A stretch of DNA of 64,000 nt from an uncultured archaeon (GTDB taxonomy: Archaea; Asgardarchaeota; Thorarchaeia; Thorarchaeales; Thorarchaeaceae): positions 76,992 through 140,991 of the forward strand of contig CAYYQL010000003.1 of NCBI GenBank assembly GCA_964473825.1, in the 5' to 3' direction. Below, piece by piece: positions 2,945 through 64,000 of this stretch (its first letter is position 1; every line of letters begins with the position of its first letter). Below the pieces are notes generated by a model that saw nothing but the letters and a program-made list of their open reading frames with translations, had not been told where the DNA came from and made no database searches. Made by a program: the position numbers and the translations under genes.

Positions 2945-3255
2945 CTGAGATGAACCCAGTACTGGAGATCGGCCTACCCACTCTTACAGAAGAGCATATC
3001 GAGGCACTTGCCCAAGATTGCGAGGCGGCTGTCACTCAGAGGCTTTTCATGGTGGTACCGGAAAAGAGTATATCCGATCTATCAGTCTCCTGTACACTGG
3101 AACTCGGTCCAGACGGTCAGCTTGACCTCGATCTTGAGATCATTCTCGAGCAACAGTATGAAACTGGTCATGCTCTGGACGATATTGTGAGTCAAGCCAC
3201 TGAGTATGGTTCGGCGTGGCTTGAGCAGAGGCTTCTGGAGATGAAGGCTGATTGA
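2941..3255 (+). CDS. DUF3194-like conserved archaeal protein (follows prefoldin beta)
   Basis: 104 aa, acidic, translationally coupled to pfdB by overlapping stop/start. DUF3194 genes commonly sit at this locus. Confidence 0.35.
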   Translation: MTEMNPVLEIGLPTLTEEHIEALAQDCEAAVTQRLFMVVPEKSISDLSVSCTLELGPDGQLDLDLEIILEQQYETGHALDDIVSQATEYGSAWLEQRLLEMKAD

Positions 3256-4250
3256 AACTGAGAGTGCTTCTGGAGAAGTCAAATAACATCCTTATTCTGG
3301 GTCATCAGAATGCGGATCCAGACGCGGTTTCATCGATGTATGCCTTGGCACAAGCATACCAGTATCTCAATCCTCAGGGTAGGTCTACGCTTGCATGTGA
3401 TGATGTGAGCAAGCTTTCTGTTCAAGTTCTAGAGCACTTTGACTGCCCTGTAGACATCATTGGAGATCCACATGGTGCTTTCGACTTGGTTGTGCTACTT
3501 GACACAAACAGTAGGTTGCAGCTCGGAGATGCCATTGCTTCTTATGTCAACGATCCTTCTCGAACAGTAATCATTGATCATCACGAGCCAAATCCCGAGA
3601 CCGAGCTCATCTCCGAGTTCATTATCTTAGATAGTGAGAAATCGTCCACATGCGAGATGATGGTAGATATCTTTCGAGAACTGGCCATGCCAATTGATGA
3701 TAAAACCGCGAATCTCCTGCTTGCTGGGATGTTGTTCGACACGCGTCGTTTCTTCTATGCCAATCGAGCCACCCTGGAGGCTGCAGTCATGCTAATCGAG
3801 AGTGGCGCCGACTATGACGAATGCGTCAAATCATTGATTTCTCGTCCAGAGCGTTCGGAGCGAATTGCTAGACTAAAGGCTGCTGGGAGACTCAAACTAC
3901 ATCAAATCGACAAGTGGATTGTGGTGACTTCCAAGGTAGGGGCGTATGAGGCAAGCTCATGTCGGGCATTGATTGATGTAGGGGCAGATGTTGCAATTGT
4001 GGGTGGGCGCCCTGCGAAGAATGTTGTGCGTTTGAGCTCAAGGAGTACCAGAGAGTTTTCAAGGGATACTGGTATCAACTTGGGAAGGGATGTGATGGAA
4101 CCCTTGGGCGAAATCATAGGTGGGACTGGTGGGGGTCATGCGAATGCTGCAGGCGCAAATGGTAATAGAAACTGTGGAAAAGCTTTGAAGCAGGCGGTAG
4201 AACTAATCCGTCAGGCTATCGCGTTGCAAGAAGAAGAAAACAGCTCATAG
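3252..4250 (+). CDS. DHH/DHHA1 family phosphoesterase (NrnA/HAN-like)
   Basis: N-terminal DHH region (ILGHQNADPDAVSS, DHHE) and a C-terminal DHHA1 GGGH motif (GGTGGGHANAAGA). Confidence 0.75.
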   Translation: MKLRVLLEKSNNILILGHQNADPDAVSSMYALAQAYQYLNPQGRSTLACDDVSKLSVQVLEHFDCPVDIIGDPHGAFDLVVLLDTNSRLQLGDAIASYVNDPSRTVIIDHHEPNPETELISEFIILDSEKSSTCEMMVDIFRELAMPIDDKTANLLLAGMLFDTRRFFYANRATLEAAVMLIESGADYDECVKSLISRPERSERIARLKAAGRLKLHQIDKWIVVTSKVGAYEASSCRALIDVGADVAIVGGRPAKNVVRLSSRSTREFSRDTGINLGRDVMEPLGEIIGGTGGGHANAAGANGNRNCGKALKQAVELIRQAIALQEEENSS

Positions 4251-4264
4251 GAGGAGCTGCGGCA

Positions 4265-5116
4265 GTGGGACTGATAGAGTTCAATGATTTCAGCTTCAAA
4301 TACGTCGGCTCAGACACCCTTGCTCTGAGAAAAGTGAACCTATCAGTAGAGCAAGGAGAATACGTCGTCGTAAGTGGCCCGTCCGGCTGTGGCAAGACTA
4401 CTCTCTGCAGGGCAATGAACGGACTCGTGCCCCAATTTCATAGAGGGTACATCGCAGGCAATGTCTTTGTTGACTCGAAGTCCACTCGTGACCATTCAGT
4501 GGCGGAGCTGGCCGGTACTGTGGGGCTGGTCTTCCAGAACCCATCTAATCAGCTTGTAACTTTGAATGTAGAGAAGGAGATCGCCTTTGGGCCTGAGAAT
4601 CTGGGTGTTGACCCGCTGGAGATACGTGAGAGAGTTGAACATCTAATCGACATCCTAGGACTGGAACACCTTCGTGAGAAACATCCTCATGAGATGTCGG
4701 GTGGCGAACAACAGCGAGTTGCCATGGCTGCAACTCTGGCTCTCAAACCTAAGGTCCTTGTTGCAGACGAGCCAACATCAAGCCTTGACCCACGGAGTGC
4801 TGAGCTCATCCTTGAGCTGATTGCAGAACAAAACCGCCAGGGGATGACTGTTGTTCTGGTTGAACATCGTCTCGATGTGGTTGCGAAGGATGCATCGAGG
4901 CTGGTTTTGATGAACAACGGATCGGTAGTTGCTGATGGAACCCCAAGAGAGGTCCTCCTCCTGGACATTTGTCAAGAGATAGGAATTGGCATACCGAAGG
5001 CCGTAGAGGTCTTCAAATGCCTCAGATCAAATGAGCTACACCTTTCTGAGGTACCTATGAGTGGGGCGGACTTGATACGAGTCTTTCGGGAGGTCATAGA
5101 ATATGATTCAGCTTGA
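4265..5116 (+). CDS. ecfA: ECF transporter ATPase component EcfA1 (CbiO-like)
   Basis: Walker A GPSGCGKTT, ABC signature LSGGEQQRVAMA, Walker B LVADEPTS. Confidence 0.85.
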   Translation: MGLIEFNDFSFKYVGSDTLALRKVNLSVEQGEYVVVSGPSGCGKTTLCRAMNGLVPQFHRGYIAGNVFVDSKSTRDHSVAELAGTVGLVFQNPSNQLVTLNVEKEIAFGPENLGVDPLEIRERVEHLIDILGLEHLREKHPHEMSGGEQQRVAMAATLALKPKVLVADEPTSSLDPRSAELILELIAEQNRQGMTVVLVEHRLDVVAKDASRLVLMNNGSVVADGTPREVLLLDICQEIGIGIPKAVEVFKCLRSNELHLSEVPMSGADLIRVFREVIEYDSA

Positions 5117-5927
5117 AGGCGTTCATTATATCTACGACGGCCTCTATCCCGCTTTGAATGGTGTTTCTCTTCAGATCGATGAAGGTGAATTGGTTGCCAT
5201 AATGGGTTCAAACGGGGCTGGCAAGACAACACTCCTCAAGCATCTCAATGGACTGCTCCGTCCACAGAAGGGACATGTCTTCTTGGATGGTGAAGAAACG
5301 AGCAAGTATTCAGTGGCGCAACTCTCCCGCCAGATAGGACTGGTGTGGCAGAACCCAGACCATCAGCTGTTTCTGGACTCGGTTCAGAAAGAGATAGTAT
5401 TCGGACTCGAGAATCTCGGATATGATGACAATGAGATTGTTCGGAGAAGCACTCGTACACTCGAGCAACTAGGGCTCTCACACCTGTCAGAACGTTCTCC
5501 CTTCTCGCTCTCAGGAGGGGAGAGAAAGAGGGTCGCTCTTGCATCCGTGCTAGCAATCGAGCCGCGTATATTGGCTCTCGATGAGCCCACTATTGGCCAA
5601 GACGCAAGACAAAAAGAACGACTGGCCGAGATACTCATCAAGCTGAAGGACGAAGGACGTACAATCATTGTTGTGACCCACGATATCGAGTTTGTGACTG
5701 AGCACTTCCCGCGCACGGTTGCCATGAGCGATGGTAGAATAGTGGCTGATGGGAATACCGCGTCGGTACTTAGCAATCGAGATATCATTGACAGATGCTC
5801 TCTGACTGTTCCCCAGATGACCGTAGTGGCTCAAGGCCTCCACGAGTTCTTTCCGGAGGTTTCGCTAAGGTTGGCTCATGTGAATGACATCGTTTCAGAG
5901 CTTCTCAGATTGGCAGGAGGGAACTAG
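5103..5927 (+). CDS. ecfA2: ECF transporter ATPase component EcfA2
   Basis: Walker A GSNGAGKTT, signature LSGGERKRVALA, Walker B LALDEPT. Arranged in tandem with EcfA1. Confidence 0.85.
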   Translation: MIQLEGVHYIYDGLYPALNGVSLQIDEGELVAIMGSNGAGKTTLLKHLNGLLRPQKGHVFLDGEETSKYSVAQLSRQIGLVWQNPDHQLFLDSVQKEIVFGLENLGYDDNEIVRRSTRTLEQLGLSHLSERSPFSLSGGERKRVALASVLAIEPRILALDEPTIGQDARQKERLAEILIKLKDEGRTIIVVTHDIEFVTEHFPRTVAMSDGRIVADGNTASVLSNRDIIDRCSLTVPQMTVVAQGLHEFFPEVSLRLAHVNDIVSELLRLAGGN

Positions 5928-6698
5928 ATGTCTTTTCTTGAGGTGTTCCAATATACCCGACAGGACTCGGTTATTCATAGGCTTGATCCGCGATCGAAAT
6001 TGGTGCTATCCACTGTTCTGGCCATGGCATCTCTTCTCTTCGTGAATATCCTTCCCTTGGTGATTCTCTTACTGGTTCTCATCCCTCTACTCGCCCTAGC
6101 CCGATCTCTACAACGCTGGATGAAGAGCATGAGAGGGCTCTCTGTCCTGATTCTCTTCATTGTCATCTTCAATACGTTGCTCTCCACGGTGGCAAACCCT
6201 TTCTCCTATTCGATTGCGCTCTCACTGCGTCTGATTGCCCTGATGAGCTCCTTCTCTTTGTTCTTTTTAACAGTCCATCCGGATGAGTTGTCTCAGGCCC
6301 TCATTCAGATGCATGTGAAGTTCGAGTTTGCCTTCGCCATGAGTATGGCAATGCGCTATGTTCCCACTCTTGGGCAGGAGGCCTATGCGATCATGGACGC
6401 ACAGAAGGCCAGAGGAGTGGAGCTGGACCGTGGGAACCTATTGAAGAGAATCCGCAACATAGTTCCCATCATAGTACCACTCATCATCGTATCAATTCGG
6501 AGGGCTTTGTCGATAGCCGAGAGTATGGAGTCTAGAGGATTTGGTGCATGCGAGAATCGTACCTATCTCGAGCAACTTGAGTTTACAACTAGGGACTGGG
6601 CACTGGTCATTGTGTCTATCATCTCACTCTGTTTCTTAGTCTATGTTAGACTCTACGTTCCTCTTCCCCCATGGATGTCTTGGGAACTACCACTGTAG
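5928..6698 (+). CDS. ecfT: ECF transporter transmembrane component EcfT (CbiQ family)
   Basis: Polytopic membrane protein with the conserved AxxARG motif (DAQKARGVE), located downstream of the two EcfA genes. Confidence 0.75.
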   Translation: MSFLEVFQYTRQDSVIHRLDPRSKLVLSTVLAMASLLFVNILPLVILLLVLIPLLALARSLQRWMKSMRGLSVLILFIVIFNTLLSTVANPFSYSIALSLRLIALMSSFSLFFLTVHPDELSQALIQMHVKFEFAFAMSMAMRYVPTLGQEAYAIMDAQKARGVELDRGNLLKRIRNIVPIIVPLIIVSIRRALSIAESMESRGFGACENRTYLEQLEFTTRDWALVIVSIISLCFLVYVRLYVPLPPWMSWELPL

Positions 6699-6778
6699 TG
6701 GGGGTTTTGGTTAACCCGAAACACAAAACGGAGAATCAATAACCTAGTTCTCTCATCAAGGTCTGTGGAGATGTTTCT

Positions 6779-8122
6779 TTGCTCCATGAAGAACGGATAG
6801 CACTACTGAATGATCTGCAACCTGCTGATGGTGACTACGTCCTGTACTGGATGCAGGCGTCCCAACGGTGTGAGTTCAACCATGCCTTGGAGTATGCCGT
6901 TCGGCGTGCAAACAAACTAGGTATGGGGCTCCTAGTCTTCTTCGGGCTCACTGATGATTTCCCTGAAGCAAACGCCAGGCATTACCGTTTCATGTTAGAG
7001 GGACTTTCAGAGACCGCATCCAGACTGGAAGAACTTGGCATCCGTTTTGTAGTTCAGAAGTGCTCACCGCCTGATGGGGTTGTGGATCTCTCCCAAGAGG
7101 CATCCCTTGTTGTTACCGACGCAGATTATCTTCAGCTTCAGAGAAGGTGGCAATCGGATGTCTCCTCCAGAATAGACGTACCCGTCTACCAAGTCGAAAG
7201 CAATGTTGTCGTACCTGTCGAGGTGGCATCTCAGAAGGAGGAATATGCCGCCTACACCTTCAGACCACGGATATCGAAGCACTTGGACAAGTATCTTGCG
7301 CCCTTAGAGATGTCACGAGTTAAGAAGTCGGCTCCAAGTCTAGAAACCGATTCACTTCCAATCCACGATGTCACGCAGGTTTTTGATGAGCTTAATTTGG
7401 ATGAGAGTGTAACCCCGGGCTGTCTTCGTGGTGGAGCAAAAGAAGCCGAGCGACTTCTGGGCACCTTTCTCCAGGAGAAGATTGACAGGTTCCCGGATTT
7501 ACGCAACGATCCTTCCAAGGACTATCTATCGCACCTGAGCCCTTACCTTCACTTTGGACAGATATCTCCACTCCAGATAGCACTTGAGGCGAAGTCCACT
7601 GAAAGCCCTGGATCTGACGTCTTCATCGAGGAACTAGTCATAAGAAGAGAGCTCAGCATGAACTTCGTATACTACAATACTCACTATAATGAACTGCAAG
7701 GACTACCAGACTGGGCCTTGACCACACTGGAGGAACACCGATATGATGATAGAGAGTATGTCTATACTCTAAAGGAGTTCGAAGAGGCAGAGACTCACGA
7801 TATCTACTGGAATGCGGCTCAGTCGGAAATGATGAAGACGGGAAAAATGCATGGTTACATGCGCATGTATTGGGGTAAGAAGATCCTAGAATGGTCTGAA
7901 ACCCCCGAGGATGCTCACAGTACCGCCCTGTATCTGAACAACAAGTACGAGATTGACGGGCGCGACCCGAATGGGTACACGGGTGTTGCCTGGTGCTTTG
8001 GCAAACACGATCGGGCTTGGCAGGAACGACCCATATTCGGTAAAGTGCGGTACATGAATGCCCGGGGACTAGAACGAAAGTTCGACATTGAAGAGTATGC
8101 CGAAAGGGTGGACTCCCTCTAG
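6779..8122 (+). CDS. phr: deoxyribodipyrimidine photolyase, class II (CPD photolyase)
   Basis: N-terminal LYWMQASQR..NHALEYA and the 447-aa length are typical of class II photolyases. Confidence 0.75.
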   Translation: MLHEERIALLNDLQPADGDYVLYWMQASQRCEFNHALEYAVRRANKLGMGLLVFFGLTDDFPEANARHYRFMLEGLSETASRLEELGIRFVVQKCSPPDGVVDLSQEASLVVTDADYLQLQRRWQSDVSSRIDVPVYQVESNVVVPVEVASQKEEYAAYTFRPRISKHLDKYLAPLEMSRVKKSAPSLETDSLPIHDVTQVFDELNLDESVTPGCLRGGAKEAERLLGTFLQEKIDRFPDLRNDPSKDYLSHLSPYLHFGQISPLQIALEAKSTESPGSDVFIEELVIRRELSMNFVYYNTHYNELQGLPDWALTTLEEHRYDDREYVYTLKEFEEAETHDIYWNAAQSEMMKTGKMHGYMRMYWGKKILEWSETPEDAHSTALYLNNKYEIDGRDPNGYTGVAWCFGKHDRAWQERPIFGKVRYMNARGLERKFDIEEYAERVDSL

Positions 8123-8169
8123 CCTCTCCCAACATGATTTATCTTAGATGAACGTGATATCTACGCACC

Positions 8170-8751
8170 ATGAATCTTGATGAGATCAGTCTTCCAGAAC
8201 GAGAATCATACATGGTCATGGACATACTGTCAGACCTCAAGCTCATAGAGGCGACGCCCACAGTCACCTATCAGGTGGCCTGTGATATCTTCTACTACGA
8301 ACTGAGGTGTTGCCGTGATGAGCTGGGCGATGATGCAACAATCTCTCAGGATCTCCAGCACATCATCGACTTCATGCAGAATGACTACGAACATATGTTG
8401 GTGACGGCAAAGCTTCATGAGGCTAGACACAAGCCGAAGGCAGCCATTGAGAATCTAGAGAACGGACTCTCCGATGAGACAAAGAACTACCAGCTCATCC
8501 ACTCCTCAGATCAGGTATGGCGTGCGCTTCAGTCTGCACAAGAAGCTCGGATGAGGGAGATTAAGCAATACAAGATGATGGAGAAGGGGATTCGGAAACA
8601 GATTGAGGAAGAGCCCAAGGACCCCGATCTTTACAACCAGCTCAGACTTCTACTCTGGATTCAAGGCAGATACAGAGCTGCAAAGAACGCGTACGTGAAA
8701 GCAACAAAATGGGGCTGGACACCCGAAACAAGCAAGCTGGTGGCTCTCTAA
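8170..8751 (+). CDS. hypothetical protein
   Basis: 193-aa ORF with no recognisable motif. Confidence 0.4.
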   Translation: MNLDEISLPERESYMVMDILSDLKLIEATPTVTYQVACDIFYYELRCCRDELGDDATISQDLQHIIDFMQNDYEHMLVTAKLHEARHKPKAAIENLENGLSDETKNYQLIHSSDQVWRALQSAQEARMREIKQYKMMEKGIRKQIEEEPKDPDLYNQLRLLLWIQGRYRAAKNAYVKATKWGWTPETSKLVAL

Positions 8752-8893
8752 CCACAAACTCAGATGCTCGGGGTCTTTGTGGACCCAATCGACTCTCTCA
8801 CGTGATAGTAGGACAACATATCCTAAAACAATACCAAAAAGGAGTGCCTGCGAAAAACAGGACAAAAGCGCCCTAACAAGAGTACTATGACTC

Positions 8894-9301
8894 TCAGCCC
8901 ATGTGTCTCTCGTTGCCAGGTATTGGTGGTACAGCGTATGTGAAGTACTGGAATTCGAGATCCCGACCCTCCGGGTCCTTGGCAAAGAACTGATAGATGC
9001 CATATTTTTGATTCTCTCGTGGTTCACATTCTGCAATCTCACTCAGAGACTCATACACCCTGCGGACTTTTTCTCTGGATGAGTAGTAGAGGGTGATCAT
9101 GATGTCCGTCTGTGCACTCTCCCGTTCGCAGAAACCCACCAGGAGATTGTCGTAACTCAGTATCTTGCAGTCGCCCTGGTCTAACCACATCTTCATGCCT
9201 ATCCTACTCTGGTAGAACTCAACAATCTCATCAAGTATCTCTGTACGAAGAAAGACTATTCCCGGCATCGATATCTCCACATGAAAGTATGATACTCTCA
9301 T
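8894..9301 (-). CDS. VOC family protein (glyoxalase/bleomycin-resistance fold)
   Basis: GIYQFFAKDPEGRDLEFQ motif typical of VOC/glyoxalase-I beta-alpha-beta-beta-beta modules. Confidence 0.55.
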   Translation of the reverse strand: MRVSYFHVEISMPGIVFLRTEILDEIVEFYQSRIGMKMWLDQGDCKILSYDNLLVGFCERESAQTDIMITLYYSSREKVRRVYESLSEIAECEPRENQKYGIYQFFAKDPEGRDLEFQYFTYAVPPIPGNERHMG

Positions 9302-17706: not shown

Positions 17707-17755
17707 ATCCCGCCTATTTCAACCCCCATAATTGAAGCGCGAAGATTTCCCTTGT

Positions 17756-18511
17756 CTACTTGAGATACTCCTCAATCACACCATGAGTTGCCTTCTTCCA
17801 TTCCACTGACTTCTTGGCAAGTTCCATAGCTATGTCGCCAGGGAGTGATTCGTCTTTAGAGTATTCTTCCATCTTCGACAGCCATGCGCTTGTCGTCAGT
17901 GAAGTGGGCTGAACTTCCTCGCCCTCAGTGGCTTTGATTAGCATCTCTCTTCCGTGTGCGACCTGAATGTAGATTGAGCTGAGCGGTGCTTTGTTGAGGA
18001 TCTCAAATACCAGTCGGTCCCAGCACATCTTTGCAGTCAACGCTCGTTTCAGTCTGCTTTGCTCGTCGTCGGGGAGTTCATTGTACTTCTGAACTGCGTC
18101 TTCGAAGCGTTCTGCGATTCCATCCACCATCGGTTTCAGTGCGGATTCATCCTCTCCCCATGCAGTGAATTCAACGGAGCGTTGAGCCTCTTCAACCCAT
18201 ATCCGTATCGTAACATCTCCATCATCCGACTTGACCGAAAATATTGCCTTACCCTTGAAAATTTGACTCTCGGCCTCGCTATACTCATTCAGGATTACCC
18301 CTGGTTTGCCGGCGACAGTATACCAGGCCAACCTGAATATAACTGACGACTCAGGTCGGTCATAGCTTAGAGTCCGTGAGATCTTGGGGCGATCATCCAT
18401 CTCTTCCAAGCGAACACTCCCGATGATATCTCTATGAAATTTTACCGAGTTCCTTATAGAGTTTGGCTGTCGCTCCCTCAACATCCTTTCTTCTTGCTCC
18501 AATTGCCGCAT
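17756..18511 (-). CDS. hypothetical protein co-oriented downstream of SepSecS (the start probably lies at an internal Met)
   Basis: 251-aa ORF on the same strand. The track ORF overlaps SepSecS by 80 nt, so the true start is probably MLRERQ or MDDRPK. No P-loop or other recognisable motif. Confidence 0.45.
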   Translation of the reverse strand: MRQLEQEERMLRERQPNSIRNSVKFHRDIIGSVRLEEMDDRPKISRTLSYDRPESSVIFRLAWYTVAGKPGVILNEYSEAESQIFKGKAIFSVKSDDGDVTIRIWVEEAQRSVEFTAWGEDESALKPMVDGIAERFEDAVQKYNELPDDEQSRLKRALTAKMCWDRLVFEILNKAPLSSIYIQVAHGREMLIKATEGEEVQPTSLTTSAWLSKMEEYSKDESLPGDIAMELAKKSVEWKKATHGVIEEYLK

Positions 18512-43439: not shown

Positions 43440-43476
43440 CCAGTTTCACCTAGCTCGTTACTTCATCAGCGTAGAC

Positions 43477-43487
43477 GGTATATAACC
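43477..43487. promoter_or_regulatory. near-palindromic TATA-like element GGTATATAACC in a divergent intergenic region
   Basis: AT-rich box between the divergently oriented genes at 43439(-) and 43557(+). Confidence 0.3.
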
Positions 43488-43556
43488 AGTACTCTCCATG
43501 AACACATGAATAGCATTATATCGTAGAGACCAGGCGTGCCCCCTTGAGGCTGAAGC

Positions 43557-43775
43557 ATGGCACGGAAGGCAAAGCGAATTGTAATTGCCGCTGAACTCTG
43601 CAAGGGTTGTCATATCTGTATATCGGCATGTCCCTTTGGAGTGCTGAAGAAGGGGGATAAGGTGGACAACAGGGGTTTCTATTTGCCAGAGGTCAGCGAC
43701 ATTGATGCATGCAGAGTGTGTCGACTTTGCGAAATGGAGTGTCCAGACTTCGCAATCACGGTAGTTGAGGACTGA
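43557..43775 (+). CDS. 2x[4Fe-4S] ferredoxin
   Basis: CKGCHICISACP and CRVCRLCEMECP motifs. Confidence 0.8.
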   Translation: MARKAKRIVIAAELCKGCHICISACPFGVLKKGDKVDNRGFYLPEVSDIDACRVCRLCEMECPDFAITVVED

Positions 43776-43881
43776 TTCTGACTGACTTCATTCCACGAAT
43801 AAAATATGGAGTCAAATAATACACAGGGTAATATAACACCGGATTCATTGAGATACGAGTTCAGACCATCGAAGGTGCGGA

Positions 43882-55705: not shown

Positions 55706-55710
55706 ATAGT

Positions 55711-55743
55711 GGAGGGCGTCGCCCCTCTTTCCATTTCTTTTAC
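55711..55743 (+). terminator. GC hairpin (GGAGGGCG-tc-GCCCCTC) followed by a T-rich tract after uL15
   Basis: Perfect 7-8-bp stem immediately 3' of the uL15 stop, then TTTCCATTTCTTTTACTC. Confidence 0.45.
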
Positions 55744-56017
55744 TCTTGATTTCAGATGAGCGATAGGTTATGTTGGAATTGCAGTGATTGGTCATAGACA
55801 GTTTCATACAACTTGGAGACTTACAGACAATAATCCGAGAGAGCTGACAAGACACTTTTCAGCTCAGTACAATAGAATAAGCATTAGCTCAACCTGAAAA
55901 GATGCCCCCTTGGGGATCCACTTCATCGACGTATGCAGCCCCGGTGTCCAGTACTGTGCAACTCGTAATGAATAGAGCTACTCTTCTCTATACAGCCTGC
56001 TTGCTAGCACTGTACTG

Positions 56018-56043
56018 TTATTATAGACCACTAGCTTTAAAGG
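56018..56043 (+). promoter_or_regulatory. AT-rich TATA-like boxes (TTATTATAG / CTTTAAAGG) upstream of secY
   Basis: Located about 95-120 nt upstream of the probable secY start, within a 432-nt noncoding gap. Confidence 0.3.
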
Positions 56044-56137
56044 CATTCATCAGCTCGAAGCCAAAAAGCAACCCTGCAGGAGACTTTGAGGTATGCCATC
56101 GACGTTTCTTCGAATCCTGAGCCCGGCGGTTCGTATA

Positions 56138-59075: not shown

Positions 59076-59345
59076 ATGCCCCGTCCAGGATTCTTGACCA
59101 AAGGTAGAGCCAACAGAAAGATAACGACACCCGGAAGCCGTACAGTAGTACACCGTCGCAATTTCTACCGTTCCTCTGGAACGTGTGCCCTCTCCGGTGT
59201 AGCCATGCAGCTTCCAAAGAACGCTAAGAACAGTCTGAGCTACAAGTCGAGCAAGTCATCAAAACGACCGAATAGGCCCTATGGCGGATATGCGACAGCT
59301 ACGGCTATGCGTCGGGGCATAATACGAGCGGCCAGAGATATTTAG
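59076..59345 (+). CDS. rpl34e: 50S ribosomal protein eL34
   Basis: MPRPGFLTKGRANRKITTPGSRTVVHRR.. plus a zinc-ribbon-like CA..SG. Confidence 0.85.
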   Translation: MPRPGFLTKGRANRKITTPGSRTVVHRRNFYRSSGTCALSGVAMQLPKNAKNSLSYKSSKSSKRPNRPYGGYATATAMRRGIIRAARDI

Positions 59346-59346
59346 G

Positions 59347-59892
59347 ATGAACCGCGTCATTACCATCGGAGGGCTGCACGGGACCGGTAAGAGCTCAGTT
59401 GCAGACCGCTTAGCTAATCACTTCAGTCTGAGGCGGGTGTCAGCAGGAGATATCTTCAGACAATTGGCTGCTGAACGAAATATGAGCTTGGCAGAATTCA
59501 GCAGGCATGCTGAGAAGAATGAGGATATCGATCGCCTCCTTGATGACACGCTTCGGAGAGAAGCAGAGAAAGGCGATGTTGTACTCGACGGACAGCTTGC
59601 AGGGTGGATGGCAGGTGACAATGCGGACCTCAAGATTCTGCTCACTGCACCTCTTGAGACTCGGGTTGCCCGGATTGCTGACCGGGATGACATACCGTAC
59701 GAGGAGGCTCGACGAGAGACAATAACACGTGAGGGCAGCGAACGAGCGCGCTATCAGGAGTACTATGGCATTGATATCTCGGATCCATCAATCTATGATG
59801 TTGTTCTGAACACAGCCAAATACGACCTCGATGGTGTAGTTGGTGTTCTGATTAGTGCAATTGAAACATATTACGAAAGATCTGCCAAGTGA
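59347..59892 (+). CDS. cmk: cytidylate kinase, archaeal type
   Basis: P-loop GGLHGTGKSS; sits in the conserved adk-DUF106-L34e-cmk-L14e cluster. Confidence 0.8.
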   Translation: MNRVITIGGLHGTGKSSVADRLANHFSLRRVSAGDIFRQLAAERNMSLAEFSRHAEKNEDIDRLLDDTLRREAEKGDVVLDGQLAGWMAGDNADLKILLTAPLETRVARIADRDDIPYEEARRETITREGSERARYQEYYGIDISDPSIYDVVLNTAKYDLDGVVGVLISAIETYYERSAK

Positions 59893-60018
59893 CCGCATCT
59901 AGCGTAAGGCTCTTATTGAGAGTGCGAGTGCGAAGCTTATTCTCCCAGTTTCCCGGGATGAACATTCGAGGTGACTCAGAATGATTCGGTTGACCGGGAC
60001 AGGTTGAGGTGTAATATC

Positions 60019-60300
60019 ATGAATCTATTCGAACCAGGTAGAATTTGCGTTAAGACTATGGGACGAGAAGCAGGCAGCTTCTGCGTCGTTGTTGAAAGAG
60101 AGGATAACAGATACGTAACCATCACTGGCCCGAAGCGTATCAATGGTGTTCGGCGTCGCAGATGCAATACTCGTCATCTAGAACCGATTGACCAGATGTT
60201 GGAGATATCTTCAGGGGCTGAAGACGACGAGATTGTAAATGCTTTAGAAGAGGCTGACCTCGTTGAACAGTTCCGAATGAGAATCAGGATTGAGGAATAG
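60019..60300 (+). CDS. rpl14e: 50S ribosomal protein eL14
   Basis: KOW motif ..PGRICVKTMGREAGSFCVVV..; the internal ATG was taken as start. Confidence 0.8.
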   Translation: MNLFEPGRICVKTMGREAGSFCVVVEREDNRYVTITGPKRINGVRRRRCNTRHLEPIDQMLEISSGAEDDEIVNALEEADLVEQFRMRIRIEE

Positions 60301-60332
60301 CCTTATCCCTTTCCAGGCCGTGTGTTCCCATT

Positions 60333-61334
60333 ATGCCGAATCTACTCCCCGCTGACAAACAGAGAGAAATCATTATACGGGCTGAGGATACCACAAATGC
60401 AGAGTACGGATTCAATGCACCCAAGGATATTCCTGTTGAGCAATTGTTGCAGAACGGCGTCATAAATCTTGACAAACCATCGGGGCCCACCAGTCATGAG
60501 ATTGCCACATGGGTCGGACGGATTCTAAATGTGGACAAAACCGGACATTCAGGAACACTCGACCCTGCAGTGACGGGAATTCTTCCTGTTGGCATAGGTG
60601 ATGCGACAAAGGCAATGCAGGCTCTACTCCCTGCAGGAAAGGAATACGTGTGTGTTCTTGAACTCCATAAGAAGACACCTGAAGAAGATATTCGAGGCGT
60701 GATAGAGGAGTTCACGGGGAAGCTGTACCAGAAGCCTCCTCTTAGGTCATCCGTTAGGAGAATACTGCGGGTGAGAGAGGTATACTACAACGAGATACTA
60801 GAAATCCGGGGACGGCTTGTACTGTTTCGGGTAGGATGTCAGGCCGGGACCTACATCCGAAAACTATGTTTTGACATTGGCGAGGCACTGGGGAGCGGTG
60901 GGCATATGCGCGAGCTCAGGAGAACCCGCGTTGGTAAGTTCCGCGAGGATGAACATCTATGTACGCTTCACGACCTCACTGATGCATATCATTTCTGGAA
61001 AGAGGACGGTGACGAAACAGATATTCGGAAGTTCGTTCTTCCCGTGGAGAGCGCTTTAGCTCATCTCCCTGAAATGGTGATTAGAGACAGCGCCGTGGCC
61101 GCTCTCTGTCACGGTGCGGATTTGGCCGCCAATGGTGTCCTGCGCCTCAGTACAGGTATCCAGCCTGATGACTTGGTCGCCGTCAGGACGCTCAAGGGGG
61201 AGGCTGTCTGCCTCTCTACTGCGAAGATGAAGAGCGACAACATTGCAAAATCTAAGAGCGGCATTGTAGCTGTGACTGACAGAGTCTTGATGGAACGAGG
61301 ACGATATCCGAGAATGTGGCAATCCAAAGAGTGA
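60333..61334 (+). CDS. cbf5: H/ACA RNP pseudouridine synthase Cbf5 (TruB family with PUA domain)
   Basis: ..NLDKPSGPTSHE..., GTLDPAVTGILPVGIG (catalytic Asp), and a C-terminal PUA domain. Confidence 0.9.
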   Translation: MPNLLPADKQREIIIRAEDTTNAEYGFNAPKDIPVEQLLQNGVINLDKPSGPTSHEIATWVGRILNVDKTGHSGTLDPAVTGILPVGIGDATKAMQALLPAGKEYVCVLELHKKTPEEDIRGVIEEFTGKLYQKPPLRSSVRRILRVREVYYNEILEIRGRLVLFRVGCQAGTYIRKLCFDIGEALGSGGHMRELRRTRVGKFREDEHLCTLHDLTDAYHFWKEDGDETDIRKFVLPVESALAHLPEMVIRDSAVAALCHGADLAANGVLRLSTGIQPDDLVAVRTLKGEAVCLSTAKMKSDNIAKSKSGIVAVTDRVLMERGRYPRMWQSKE

Positions 61335-61747
61335 TCGTTTCTCATGTACTAAAGCGAATATTGATTTACTAGTACGGGGACCAGTACGTGGCCCTGGAGC
61401 GAAAGCGCAACTGACGGTACTCATCATTCTGATGAGAGCTGAGGAAGCTCCCAACTACAGTCGGTGCCGGTCCTGTGCAAGCAGGGAGGTGAGAGCCTCG
61501 CTCTGGGAACAGAAACGACACCTCCAAGCCACAAATGACAATGATGCGGAAGTTGAATCCGTTGAGAAGTGTCTTGGTCCGGTTGAAACGACCCATCACC
61601 GTGTAGCAACTCCAAGAATACATCGTTGACGTGCCGACCCGAGGTGTAGGGTAGGAGGCTTAGTCTGATGTTGCAAGGTTCTCGCGTGGCAACACGCCTG
61701 AACGGAACAGAATTGGGGCTATTCTTCGGACCAGGGCCAATCCCATT

Positions 61748-62281
61748 TCAGATATCGTTCATGAACTCCTTCTGGACTTGAACCACTTGAGTACTATCCT
61801 TACACTCTGAATAGACTTGAAGAGGTTCCTTGTTCAGAGTGAGAAATGTTGGCCCCCACTTGAAGACCGACATGAGGTCCTCTGCCTGGTTCTTGAAGCC
61901 CATGATATAGAGGGCCGCAGCCACAGCCTCAGCAGTTGATAATTTGATTGGCTTGTATGTATTGACTGGATTGGCTGCAACGAGATACGGTAGAGCCCTT
62001 TGTCGTGTGCTCCAAGTCTGGGCAAATATCTCTTCAGCCCTTTTCCACGAGCAGTCCAGTGCGACAATTCCCGATTTCACCGCATGAACAGAATCTTCTC
62101 TTGAGAGAGCTCTCTCCGATACCGGATTCAGGACAATACTCTTGCGCGGAATCTTCCCGGTCGAATGGACAATTTCGGCCCTACCCATCCGTACAAGCCG
62201 TAGTCCTGTGCATTTCTTGGGATCGCACTGTGCAGCGTGATAGATGATTACCCGGATTTTCTGTGATTTCGCCATATACAT
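61748..62281 (-). CDS. tsr3: 16S rRNA aminocarboxypropyltransferase Tsr3 (DUF367)
   Basis: ..AQCDPKKCTGLRL.. N-terminal motif typical of Tsr3. Confidence 0.7.
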   Translation of the reverse strand: MYMAKSQKIRVIIYHAAQCDPKKCTGLRLVRMGRAEIVHSTGKIPRKSIVLNPVSERALSREDSVHAVKSGIVALDCSWKRAEEIFAQTWSTRQRALPYLVAANPVNTYKPIKLSTAEAVAAALYIMGFKNQAEDLMSVFKWGPTFLTLNKEPLQVYSECKDSTQVVQVQKEFMNDI

Positions 62282-62342
62282 CCAACTGACCTTTCGGAAG
62301 AGATTTCAACATTCCCCTTTTCCCCGATTAGTTGTGCTCGGT

Positions 62343-62621
62343 ATGCCTGCAGACCCAGAACATGCGTGCGAGATATGTGGCGAACCAGTGGTTGAGCTGC
62401 ATATATGCCGCATGTGCGGGGCTCCTGTATGCAACCAGTGCTGGATTGCGGGCGATCAGATATGCATTATCTGTATGGAAACGCGATGCCGTATATGCAA
62501 GGAATATCACGCATCTCGTGCTTGTGACGCATGTGGTCAACTCGTATGCGAGGATCACGGTCAACGGATTGATGCAGCTACGGTGTGTGAGGTGTGTTTG
62601 AAAGACCAAGCTAAACCCTGA
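62343..62621 (+). CDS. cysteine-rich multi-zinc-ribbon small protein
   Basis: About 16 Cys/His in ~92 aa arranged as repeated CxxC pairs. Confidence 0.45.
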   Translation: MPADPEHACEICGEPVVELHICRMCGAPVCNQCWIAGDQICIICMETRCRICKEYHASRACDACGQLVCEDHGQRIDAATVCEVCLKDQAKP

Positions 62622-62722: not shown

Positions 62723-64000
62723 ATGGCCGTTGAAATACATCTCGGACTTGATGACATAGATAGCCCACGAGGAGGATGCACGACCCATTTTGCCAGTCTG
62801 CTTGTTGAGAGGCTATCCGCGGATGGGGTTCAATGGCTTGACTACCCGAATCTCATACGCTTGAATCCTAATGTTCCGTATAGGACTCGTGGAAATGGTG
62901 CTGTCGCGTTGAGGTTCAAGAGCGATGAGAAATACGCGAAGAATGTGCTTGAGATCGTACGGGAGATATTCCCCTCCTATATAGAGCGTGGCTATCGCAA
63001 TACCAATCCTGGAGTAGTCTTGGTGCTTGGAAGACCCACGGAAGAGATACGTGAATTCGGCGAGAAGGCGTTGTGGCGTGTCCAACCACTGGGAAATGTA
63101 CGTACGATGCTCATAGAGAACGATATTCCCCATATCGCGTCTGGAAACGGGAGAGGTCTCATTGGCGCAGTATCTGCCATCGGTAATGTCCTAGATGATG
63201 ATTATACGTATGAGTTTATTGCCTATCGGAGCGCCGAATTGAATGATGAAGAGCGCGGAGTCGATCCTGTTTCGGTTGCAGAGATGAACAGAAAAATGGG
63301 GGACAAGACCTTTGCCAATGTAGATGAATCAACTGGACAGGTTCTGATACAGCCAAATGGACCCGATCCAGTTTTGTTCGGCATCCGTGGCAACGAAGCT
63401 GAAGATGTGAAGGAAGCCGCATCTATGGTAGATTCAGAGCAGACTGTTGAAAGATGGACTATATTTCGGACGAATCAAGGAACAGACGCTCACCTGTCTA
63501 ATCTTCTGAAGATCAACAAATTGCGGCCATATCTCTCCGCGAGGGTGCGCGGCGAAGTTTCGAAGGACCCGCGAATGATAGTAGGTGGACACGTTATCTT
63601 CGAGATAGAGGACGAATCCGGTTCGGTTGAGTGTGCTGCCTATGAGCCCACTGGAGAGTTTCGGGAGATCGTGCAGAAACTCATCCCGGGTGATTTGGTC
63701 GAGTTGCACGCCGGTGTGAGGCCAGCATCTCGACAACACGAGCTCACACTGAATGTGGAGGGCATGATGATTGTACAACTCACAGAGCATGTTGAAGAGG
63801 CGAATCCAACCTGCCCCGACTGCGGAAAACGGATGAAGAGTGCCGGACGAAAAAAGGGATACAAATGCCCAAACTGTGGCTTGAAGGCCCCAGATGCCAA
63901 GCGGGTGAAGAGCATTCTTCCTCGGGAAATCAATACAGGTCTCTATCTCCCTCCTGCACGCGCGCAAAGACATCTAACAAGGCCTCTCGGCCGTCAGCCG
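62723..64000 (+). CDS. tiaS: tRNA(Ile2) 2-agmatinylcytidine synthetase TiaS, 3'-truncated by the window end
   Basis: Not in the ORF track because no stop occurs within the window. Translation gives MAVEIHLGLDDIDSPRGGCTTHF..., GRGLIGAVSAIG, VIFEIEDESGSVECAAYEPTGEF and CPDCGKRMKSAGRKKGYKCPNCG, which match the TiaS kinase, OB and zinc-ribbon domains. Confidence 0.85.
   Translation, partial: MAVEIHLGLDDIDSPRGGCTTHFASLLVERLSADGVQWLDYPNLIRLNPNVPYRTRGNGAVALRFKSDEKYAKNVLEIVREIFPSYIERGYRNTNPGVVLVLGRPTEEIREFGEKALWRVQPLGNVRTMLIENDIPHIASGNGRGLIGAVSAIGNVLDDDYTYEFIAYRSAELNDEERGVDPVSVAEMNRKMGDKTFANVDESTGQVLIQPNGPDPVLFGIRGNEAEDVKEAASMVDSEQTVERWTIFRTNQGTDAHLSNLLKINKLRPYLSARVRGEVSKDPRMIVGGHVIFEIEDESGSVECAAYEPTGEFREIVQKLIPGDLVELHAGVRPASRQHELTLNVEGMMIVQLTEHVEEANPTCPDCGKRMKSAGRKKGYKCPNCGLKAPDAKRVKSILPREINTGLYLPPARAQRHLTRPLGRQP

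Follow-up and report, generated by a model that had tools for sequence, protein, structure and literature searches.

Complete rnpB gene for an archaeal type A RNase P RNA between cbf5 and tsr3 in a Thorarchaeota-like Asgard archaeon

The 413-nt spacer at positions 61335-61747 of the 64-kb stretch of DNA analysed here (hereafter, the window) almost certainly holds rnpB, the gene for the catalytic RNA of RNase P, of a Thorarchaeota-like Asgard archaeon. RNase P RNA is the ribozyme subunit of RNase P, the enzyme that processes precursor tRNAs at their 5′ ends. The gene (61389-61739, + strand) is complete, approximately 351 nt long, and of archaeal type A, and its family membership, fold, conservation, and gene order are matters of direct observation. 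The Rfam model of archaeal RNase P RNA, RF00373, matched positions 61395-61733 (+) with 151.9 bits, against a gathering threshold of 84 (E 5e-43), and was aligned from end to end (model positions 1-288 of 288). A first-pass annotation of this DNA had flagged the spacer as a candidate structured non-coding RNA gene and suggested an Rfam cmscan, the search that has now settled the question. It had also considered RNase P RNA, only to set this identity aside on the grounds that the spacing of the conserved strands did not fit; the uninterrupted alignment to the covariance model overturns this objection, and the identity is RNase P RNA after all.

The spacer is bounded on the left by the Cbf5 ORF (cbf5, 60333-61334, +; Pfam domains TruB_N, TruB_C_2, PUA, and DKCLD) and on the right by the Tsr3 ORF (tsr3, 61748-62281, −; Ribo_biogen_C and Fer4_RLI), which is convergent with cbf5, and these domains bear out the names originally given to both flanks. 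It had been singled out for its length, rightly so given that the median gap in a crude ORF map of the window is 60 nt and that no more than 8 of 77 gaps are longer than 300 nt. Further gaps of this size in the map include 43440-43881, 55706-56092, and 17707-18058, some of which may hold ORFs shorter than 90 aa. The description of the spacer as GC-rich is correct in that its GC content (52.5%) lies above the window mean (49.1%) and among the top 6% of 413-nt windows, but the enrichment is mild. Outside of rnpB, the spacer comprises 54 nt upstream and 8 nt downstream, which leaves no room for a second RNA gene.

Besides RF00373, no Rfam family reached its gathering threshold anywhere in the 64-kb window, and at a permissive cut-off (E ≤ 10) nothing else credible was found on either strand of 61250-61850. 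The two snoRNA matches returned at this cut-off are at chance level (E ~6; 16 and 12.6 bits for gathering thresholds of 40 and 35), derive from yeast and fungal C/D models, and lie mostly within the flanking ORFs. The signal recognition particle (SRP) RNA, to which some strands had been likened, yielded no match at gathering in the window nor at E ≤ 10 in 61250-61850. An H/ACA or other guide sRNA, encoded beside the gene of its partner protein, had been put forward initially on account of the proximity of cbf5 and the presence of hairpins, and these two features are all that speaks for it. No H/ACA family was matched at E ≤ 10 in 61250-61850, the best guide-RNA family match (E ~6) is far below gathering, and the hairpins are explained by the RNase P model, with rnpB filling ~351 of the 413 nt. 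We consider a guide RNA at this position very improbable.

The rnpB assignment is further documented by related genomes, a comparison that had also been proposed from the outset. RF00373 matches of 115-172 bits were found in 14 of the 19 closest loci, and in 13 of these 14 (Thorarchaeota-like genomes) rnpB follows cbf5 immediately and in the same orientation, the exception being locus L016, where the match is upstream of cbf5 and on the opposite strand. A search with nhmmer confirmed the RF00373-positive loci, and recovered an additional cut-off rnpB start in locus L007. No rnpB was found downstream of cbf5 in locus L004 (Thorarchaeota SMTZ1-45; 3190-7190), where a gene for a 1312-aa membrane protein on the opposite strand takes its place, and the cbf5-rnpB linkage is therefore not universal in the group. 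Likewise, no rnpB was found within 4 kb in the cbf5 loci of methanogens, Baldrarchaeota, and Odinarchaeota (L018-L080). The alignment of 14 sequences has a mean column identity of 80%, and its CR-I to CR-V blocks are invariant.

All five conserved regions are present in the window RNA in canonical order, and are invariant or nearly so across the 14 sequences: GAGGAAGCUCC at 61441, ACAGAAACGACAC at 61510, UUGAAACG at 61583, AGCAA at 61605, and ACAGAAUUGGGGCUA at 61707. Two of the strands first noted as similar to RNase P RNA are genuine parts of it, GAGGAAGCUCC corresponding to CR-I/P4 and ACAGAAAC (61510-61517) to CR-II, and the string GAGGAAGCTCC is indeed found at 61441-61451. To evaluate the fold, we drew up a complete structure manually, pseudoknots P4 and P6 included, guided by the Rfam alignment and by covariation, and counted pairs over the 14 sequences; a hand-built structure was used because RNAalifold does not represent pseudoknots and had wrongly paired the P2 3′ strand with J5/7. 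Standard pairs occupy 94.0% of 1473 cells, a share that drops to 35-44% once the 3′ partners are displaced by 1-3 columns, both sides have changed at 71 of the 106 pairs, and none of 500 shuffles reached any of five measures. Folded on its own, the window sequence gains little stability over shuffled versions (z = −1.87), so that the identification rests on the family match and the covariation rather than on thermodynamics; a weak z score is usual for large pseudoknotted RNAs.

In the catalytic domain, the 5′ strand of helix P1 (61389-61405, +) pairs with 61722-61739 (15 pairs, 12 with both-side changes, 98% paired). P1 extends 6 bp past the RF00373 model, to 61389/61739, and this extension covaries; its 3′ strand (61722-61739, +) ends 8 nt short of the stop codon of the convergent tsr3. 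The P2 5′ strand (GCAAC, 61407-61411, +) pairs with GUUGC at 61670-61674; at alignment columns 25-301, 8 sequences have GC and 6 have AU, and columns 23-303 and 26-300 covary as well. The GC-GAAA-GC string from which a GNRA-capped hairpin had been proposed is present at 61399-61406, but forms no hairpin: its bases form part of P1 and P2 on their 5′ sides, with partners at the 3′ end of the RNA, and the longer string GCGAAAGC cited for this hairpin falls in the P1 5′ strand. The second hairpin reported from the sequence, CTCATCA-ttc-TGATGAG at 61420-61436, is real and constitutes the upper part of P3 (61415-61441, +), which consists of 4 bp, an A-A mismatch, and the perfect 7-bp helix CUCAUCA/UGAUGAG, with both-side changes at 6 of 11 pairs. 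CR-I (GAGGAAGCUCCCAA, 61441-61454, +), a part of the catalytic core, contains the 5′ strand of the P4 pseudoknot, in which 61446-61454 pairs with 61713-61720 (+; 8 pairs, 5 with both-side changes, 98% paired) and the bulged U61449 is invariant in the 14-sequence alignment. The P5 5′ strand (CUAC, 61455-61458, +) pairs with GUAG at 61603-61606 according to the RF00373 alignment, and covariation is apparent when the alignment is read directly (CUAC/GUAG, CUGC/GCAG, and CUCA/UGAG); P5 is only 70% paired in the count because MAFFT misaligned some of the columns. The P6 pseudoknot, a hallmark of type A, joins 61460-61465 (GUCGGU) to 61633-61638 (GCCGAC) (+; 6 pairs, 4 with both-side changes, 95% paired).

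The specificity domain (61467-61602, +) is composed of P7, P8 (61472-61485, +; GCAA loop), P9 (GAGA loop), P10/11, CR-II (ACAGAAACGACAC, 61510-61522, +), P12, and CR-III (UUGAAACG, 61583-61590, +), and its helices P7-P12 are 90-100% paired with both-side changes in each. Within P12, a K-turn-like motif (AAUGAUGCGG/CCGUUGAG, 61540-61549 and 61559-61566, +) matches the Rfam consensus and, judging from its sequence and this consensus, appears to resemble the K-turns bound by L7Ae. Downstream of this domain, the CR-IV core AGCAA (61605-61609, +), aligned to GCAAG in the model, lies in the P5/P15 junction and is invariant in all 14 sequences. It is followed by the region of P15 (CUCC/GGAG) and P16 (61610-61657, +), in which the P16 loop carries the P6 3′ strand; both sides have changed at 5 of the 6 pairs of P16 (61619-61624 with 61643-61648, +) and at 3 of the 4 pairs of P15. 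In the conserved AGGGUA of the internal loop L15 (61648-61653, +), GGGU is invariant in all 14 sequences, while the flanking bases differ in the divergent L016 (CGGGUG). CR-V (61707-61720, +) consists of ACAGAA and then the P4 3′ strand UUGGGGCU, and its motif occurs a single time in the 64-kb window.

This pattern of substitution bears directly on two explanations in which the spacer would hold no RNA gene. A spacer consisting solely of the flanking genes' 3′ UTRs, as had been suggested initially, together with their terminators, would agree with the convergent orientation of cbf5 and tsr3; however, it is contradicted by the 80% column identity observed across genomes in which Cbf5 itself is 60-94% identical, and by compensatory changes at 71 helix positions, which are not expected for UTRs, and we hold this explanation to be hardly credible. 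ORFs can also be drawn mechanically through the spacer, at 61432-61629 (+, 65 aa), 61369-61623 (−, 84 aa), and 61056-61454 (−, 132 aa), but the 65-aa and 84-aa ORFs are without a Pfam match, in line with the original impression that no convincing ORF is present, and the 132-aa ORF overlaps the cbf5 3′ end in antisense over most of its length. Since substitutions also follow the paired RNA helices, and the indels in hairpin loops are not multiples of three, we assign a small protein-coding gene a practically negligible probability.

Two relatives carry duplicated pieces of the rnpB 3′ end. In locus L012, a 2-kb segment of two genes, encoding a 403-aa BNR/Ycf48-like ORF and a 172-aa ORF, lies between rnpB and tsr3 and is flanked on both sides by the same 20 nt of the CR-V core, repeated without mismatch (GAACAAAATTGGGGCTACTC; 5375-5394 and 7398-7417), and the gene order is otherwise that of the window (rnpB, tsr3, cysteine-rich ORF). 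Metagenome contig Ga0114923_10000091 (L101) harbors a Thor-like rnpB at 3419-3764 and, over 3711-9102, the final ~56 nt of rnpB four times in direct orientation, a unit spanning the P19 loop and CR-V up to the P1 3′ strand. The first copy is the resident 3′ end, whereas the extra copies (3780-3835, 5585-5640, and 9047-9102) share 86-93% mutual identity and bear the P1 3′ strand of another lineage; the copies bracket single large minus-strand ORFs of 550 aa (no Pfam match) and 1078 aa (leucine-rich repeats). Insertion of foreign DNA into 3′ ends is known for tRNA and tmRNA genes, and both arrangements look like foreign DNA inserted at the rnpB 3′ end, in L101 as a series of cassettes or elements with att-like repeats. 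No integrase was seen in the L012 or L101 pieces (12 kb for L101). In the window, the repeated 3′ end occurs as a single copy.

These partial 3′ fragments indicate that pieces of rnpB can be duplicated in this lineage, and hence lend some plausibility to the idea that the window copy is a decayed or redundant pseudogene, with a working gene elsewhere in the genome. However, the window copy is full length and retains every conserved region, the two pseudoknots, and the P4 bulged U intact, and it occupies an orthologous position common to 13 relatives. No second rnpB copy or fragment was found within the 64-kb window, and we give a pseudogene no more than a very slim chance. We instead interpret the window rnpB as an ordinary housekeeping gene, one further member of a well-known family.

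The ends of rnpB given here (61389 and 61739) are those of helix P1. An AT-rich box (AATATTGATTTA, 61357-61368, +) precedes the first base of P1 by ~21-32 nt, and relatives display a conserved box (CTTTTTAT) ~22-29 nt upstream of the P1 start, compared to which the window box is less canonical. On sequence grounds, we interpret AATATTGATTTA as a putative archaeal TATA box of rnpB. The conservation of a TATA-like box at a promoter-like distance suggests that a dedicated promoter lies between the cbf5 stop codon and rnpB, and that the RNA is probably transcribed from this promoter just past the end of cbf5. On the 3′ side of rnpB, no clear or strong oligo-T terminator tract was detected.

The Cbf5 protein of the window is 94% identical to that of an uncultured archaeon MAG, 67-76% identical to those of named Thorarchaeota/Promethearchaeota MAGs, and 51-61% identical to those of Baldrarchaeota, Odinarchaeota, and methanogens, which led us to assign the window to a Thorarchaeota-like Asgard archaeon. 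Upstream of rnpB, at 59076-61334 (+), lies an archaeal gene string of L34e, cytidylate kinase, likely L14e, and cbf5, a classical archaeal gene order; L34e and cytidylate kinase have Pfam matches, and the likely L14e, with no Pfam match at 1e-3, was recognised by its sequence. On the other side, a gene for TiaS, the tRNA(Ile2) agmatidine synthetase (62723-63997, +), runs past the window end and displays TiaS_TCKD, TiaS_FLD, OB-fold, and TiaS zinc-ribbon domains. Taken together, cbf5, rnpB, tsr3, and TiaS form a small cluster of genes for RNA processing and modification. A short ORF rich in cysteine, with several CxxC pairs (62244-62621, +), is divergent from tsr3 and has a weak B-box zinc-finger match (E 7e-4, under the Pfam cut-off), and a shorter, 87-aa homologue occupies the equivalent place in L012 (8063-8326). 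ARAGORN detected no tRNA genes in the 64-kb window.

The RNA adopts the archaeal type A fold, in which P1-P5, P15/P16, and the P4 and P6 pseudoknots form the catalytic domain, and P7-P12 with CR-II and CR-III form the specificity domain. By homology, it is expected to assemble with the archaeal RNase P proteins Pop5, Rpp30, Rpp21, Rpp29, and L7Ae into a holoenzyme that would cleave the 5′ leader off pre-tRNAs. On the same basis, P4 together with CR-I, CR-IV, and CR-V would build the metal-binding active site, the CR-II/CR-III module would recognise the T-stem-loop of the tRNA, and the tRNA 3′ end (RCCA) may be bound through pairing to the conserved L15 GGU. The transcription start, expression, protein partners, and activity of the RNA are aspects that we infer. 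For genome annotation, the value of this assignment is that a long, seemingly “empty” spacer corresponds to an essential housekeeping gene, with nothing unexplained left there.

The single departure from the Rfam consensus is a hairpin at the position of P19 (61678-61703, +), a 26-nt insert relative to RF00373 capped by a GNRA loop (GCAA), which extends the distance between the end of the P2 3′ strand (61674) and CR-V (61707) to 32 nt, compared to 4 nt in the model. Its stem has 11 positions, 9 of them paired in the window sequence, with a 2x2 internal loop. Both-side changes are found at 10 of the 11 stem pairs when the 14 sequences are compared, and every one of them retains the GNRA loop with its closing G-C pair; the covariation establishes that the helix is real. 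To our knowledge, the structurally characterised archaeal RNase P RNAs do not carry a hairpin at this position. We evaluated its distribution by scanning metagenome contigs with a P19-independent pattern (CR-II...CR-III...GCAA), which yielded 120 loci (L081-L200), of which 20 out of 20 sampled were full-length RF00373 matches. P4 and P2 could be placed by script in 81 of the 120 loci, corresponding to 57 clusters at ≥85% identity. In this sample, which carries no taxonomic labels and is biased by the scan pattern, the P19 position is at least 14 nt long and foldable as a hairpin in 44 of the 57 clusters (14-57 nt, often GNRA-capped), and at most 6 nt long in 12. The possibility that the hairpin represents an Asgard-specific, eukaryote-like novelty was rejected given these 44 metagenomic clusters and the listing of P19 as present in archaeal type A (PMC2858038 Table 3). 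A hairpin this common in uncultured archaea carries no particular message on eukaryote ancestry.

The same hairpin may be relevant to the architecture of the holoenzyme. The RNase P of Methanocaldococcus jannaschii (M. jannaschii) is a dimer, P19 has been argued to clash with its RNA dimer, and an engineered P19 stem rendered the enzyme monomeric and less active (Wan et al. 2019, PMC6565675). By analogy, a natural hairpin at this position could block RNA-RNA dimer packing of the M. jannaschii type, such that the Thorarchaeota holoenzyme would be monomeric like the eukaryal one; this reading, which derives from the engineered-P19 experiment of PMC6565675 only, is a tentative one that we deem rather unlikely. 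If true, other environmental archaeal RNase Ps with a P19-position hairpin would be monomeric too, and the dimeric architecture would be a peculiarity of an archaeal minority. In this way, the widespread occurrence of the hairpin bears on the generality of the dimeric holoenzyme.

Searches of the literature for RNase P together with Thorarchaeota found no papers, and for RNase P RNA together with Asgard found nothing on RNA structure. We compared the window RNA to known classes of RNase P RNA. With archaeal type A RNAs (RF00373, including those of Pyrococcus and Methanothermobacter), it shares P1-P12, P15, P16, and the P4 and P6 pseudoknots, along with CR-I to CR-V, the bulged U of P4, the GGU of L15, and the K-turn-like motif in P12. 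It differs from the type A model by a P1 that is 6 bp longer, a P3 lengthened to 11 bp with an A-A mismatch, a P2 of merely 5 pairs, the 26-nt GNRA-capped hairpin added between the P2 3′ strand and CR-V, and the pair beside the bulged U, which is C-G here (GAGGAAGCUCC) and G-C in the consensus (GAGGAAAGUCC). Archaeal type M RNAs, as in the cryo-EM structure from M. jannaschii (PMC6565675), share the catalytic core, the S-domain, and presumably the same five protein partners. However, type M is devoid of P6, P8, P16, and P17 (PMC2858038 Table 3) and of the RCCA-binding loop L15 (PMC2858038 Table 3; PMC6565675), whereas we count all of these elements as present in the window RNA, and the presence of P6, P8, P16, and the GGGU of L15 identifies it as type A rather than type M. 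In addition, where the P19 stem of M. jannaschii was engineered, the window RNA possesses a natural stem at the P19 position.

Bacterial type A RNAs (RF00010) share the overall core, the P4 and P6 pseudoknots, and the GGU of L15, and both models belong to Rfam clan CL00002, of which the archaeal model is the member reported for this locus. Unlike bacterial type A, the window RNA does not include P13, P14, or P18, and its J2/3 (UGA) has the archaeal length of 3 nt. With the RNAs of eukaryal nuclear RNase P and RNase MRP, it shares a helix between the P2 3′ strand and the P4 3′ strand/CR-V, based on the location of P19 reported for these RNAs (PMC6565675, PMC10966300). Nevertheless, it retains P5, P6, P15/P16, and L15, which are lost or reduced in the eukaryal RNAs, and it lacks their P3 internal-loop domain. 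Overall, Thorarchaeota possess a conventional type A RNase P RNA, which is not eukaryote-like except for the hairpin at the P19 position.
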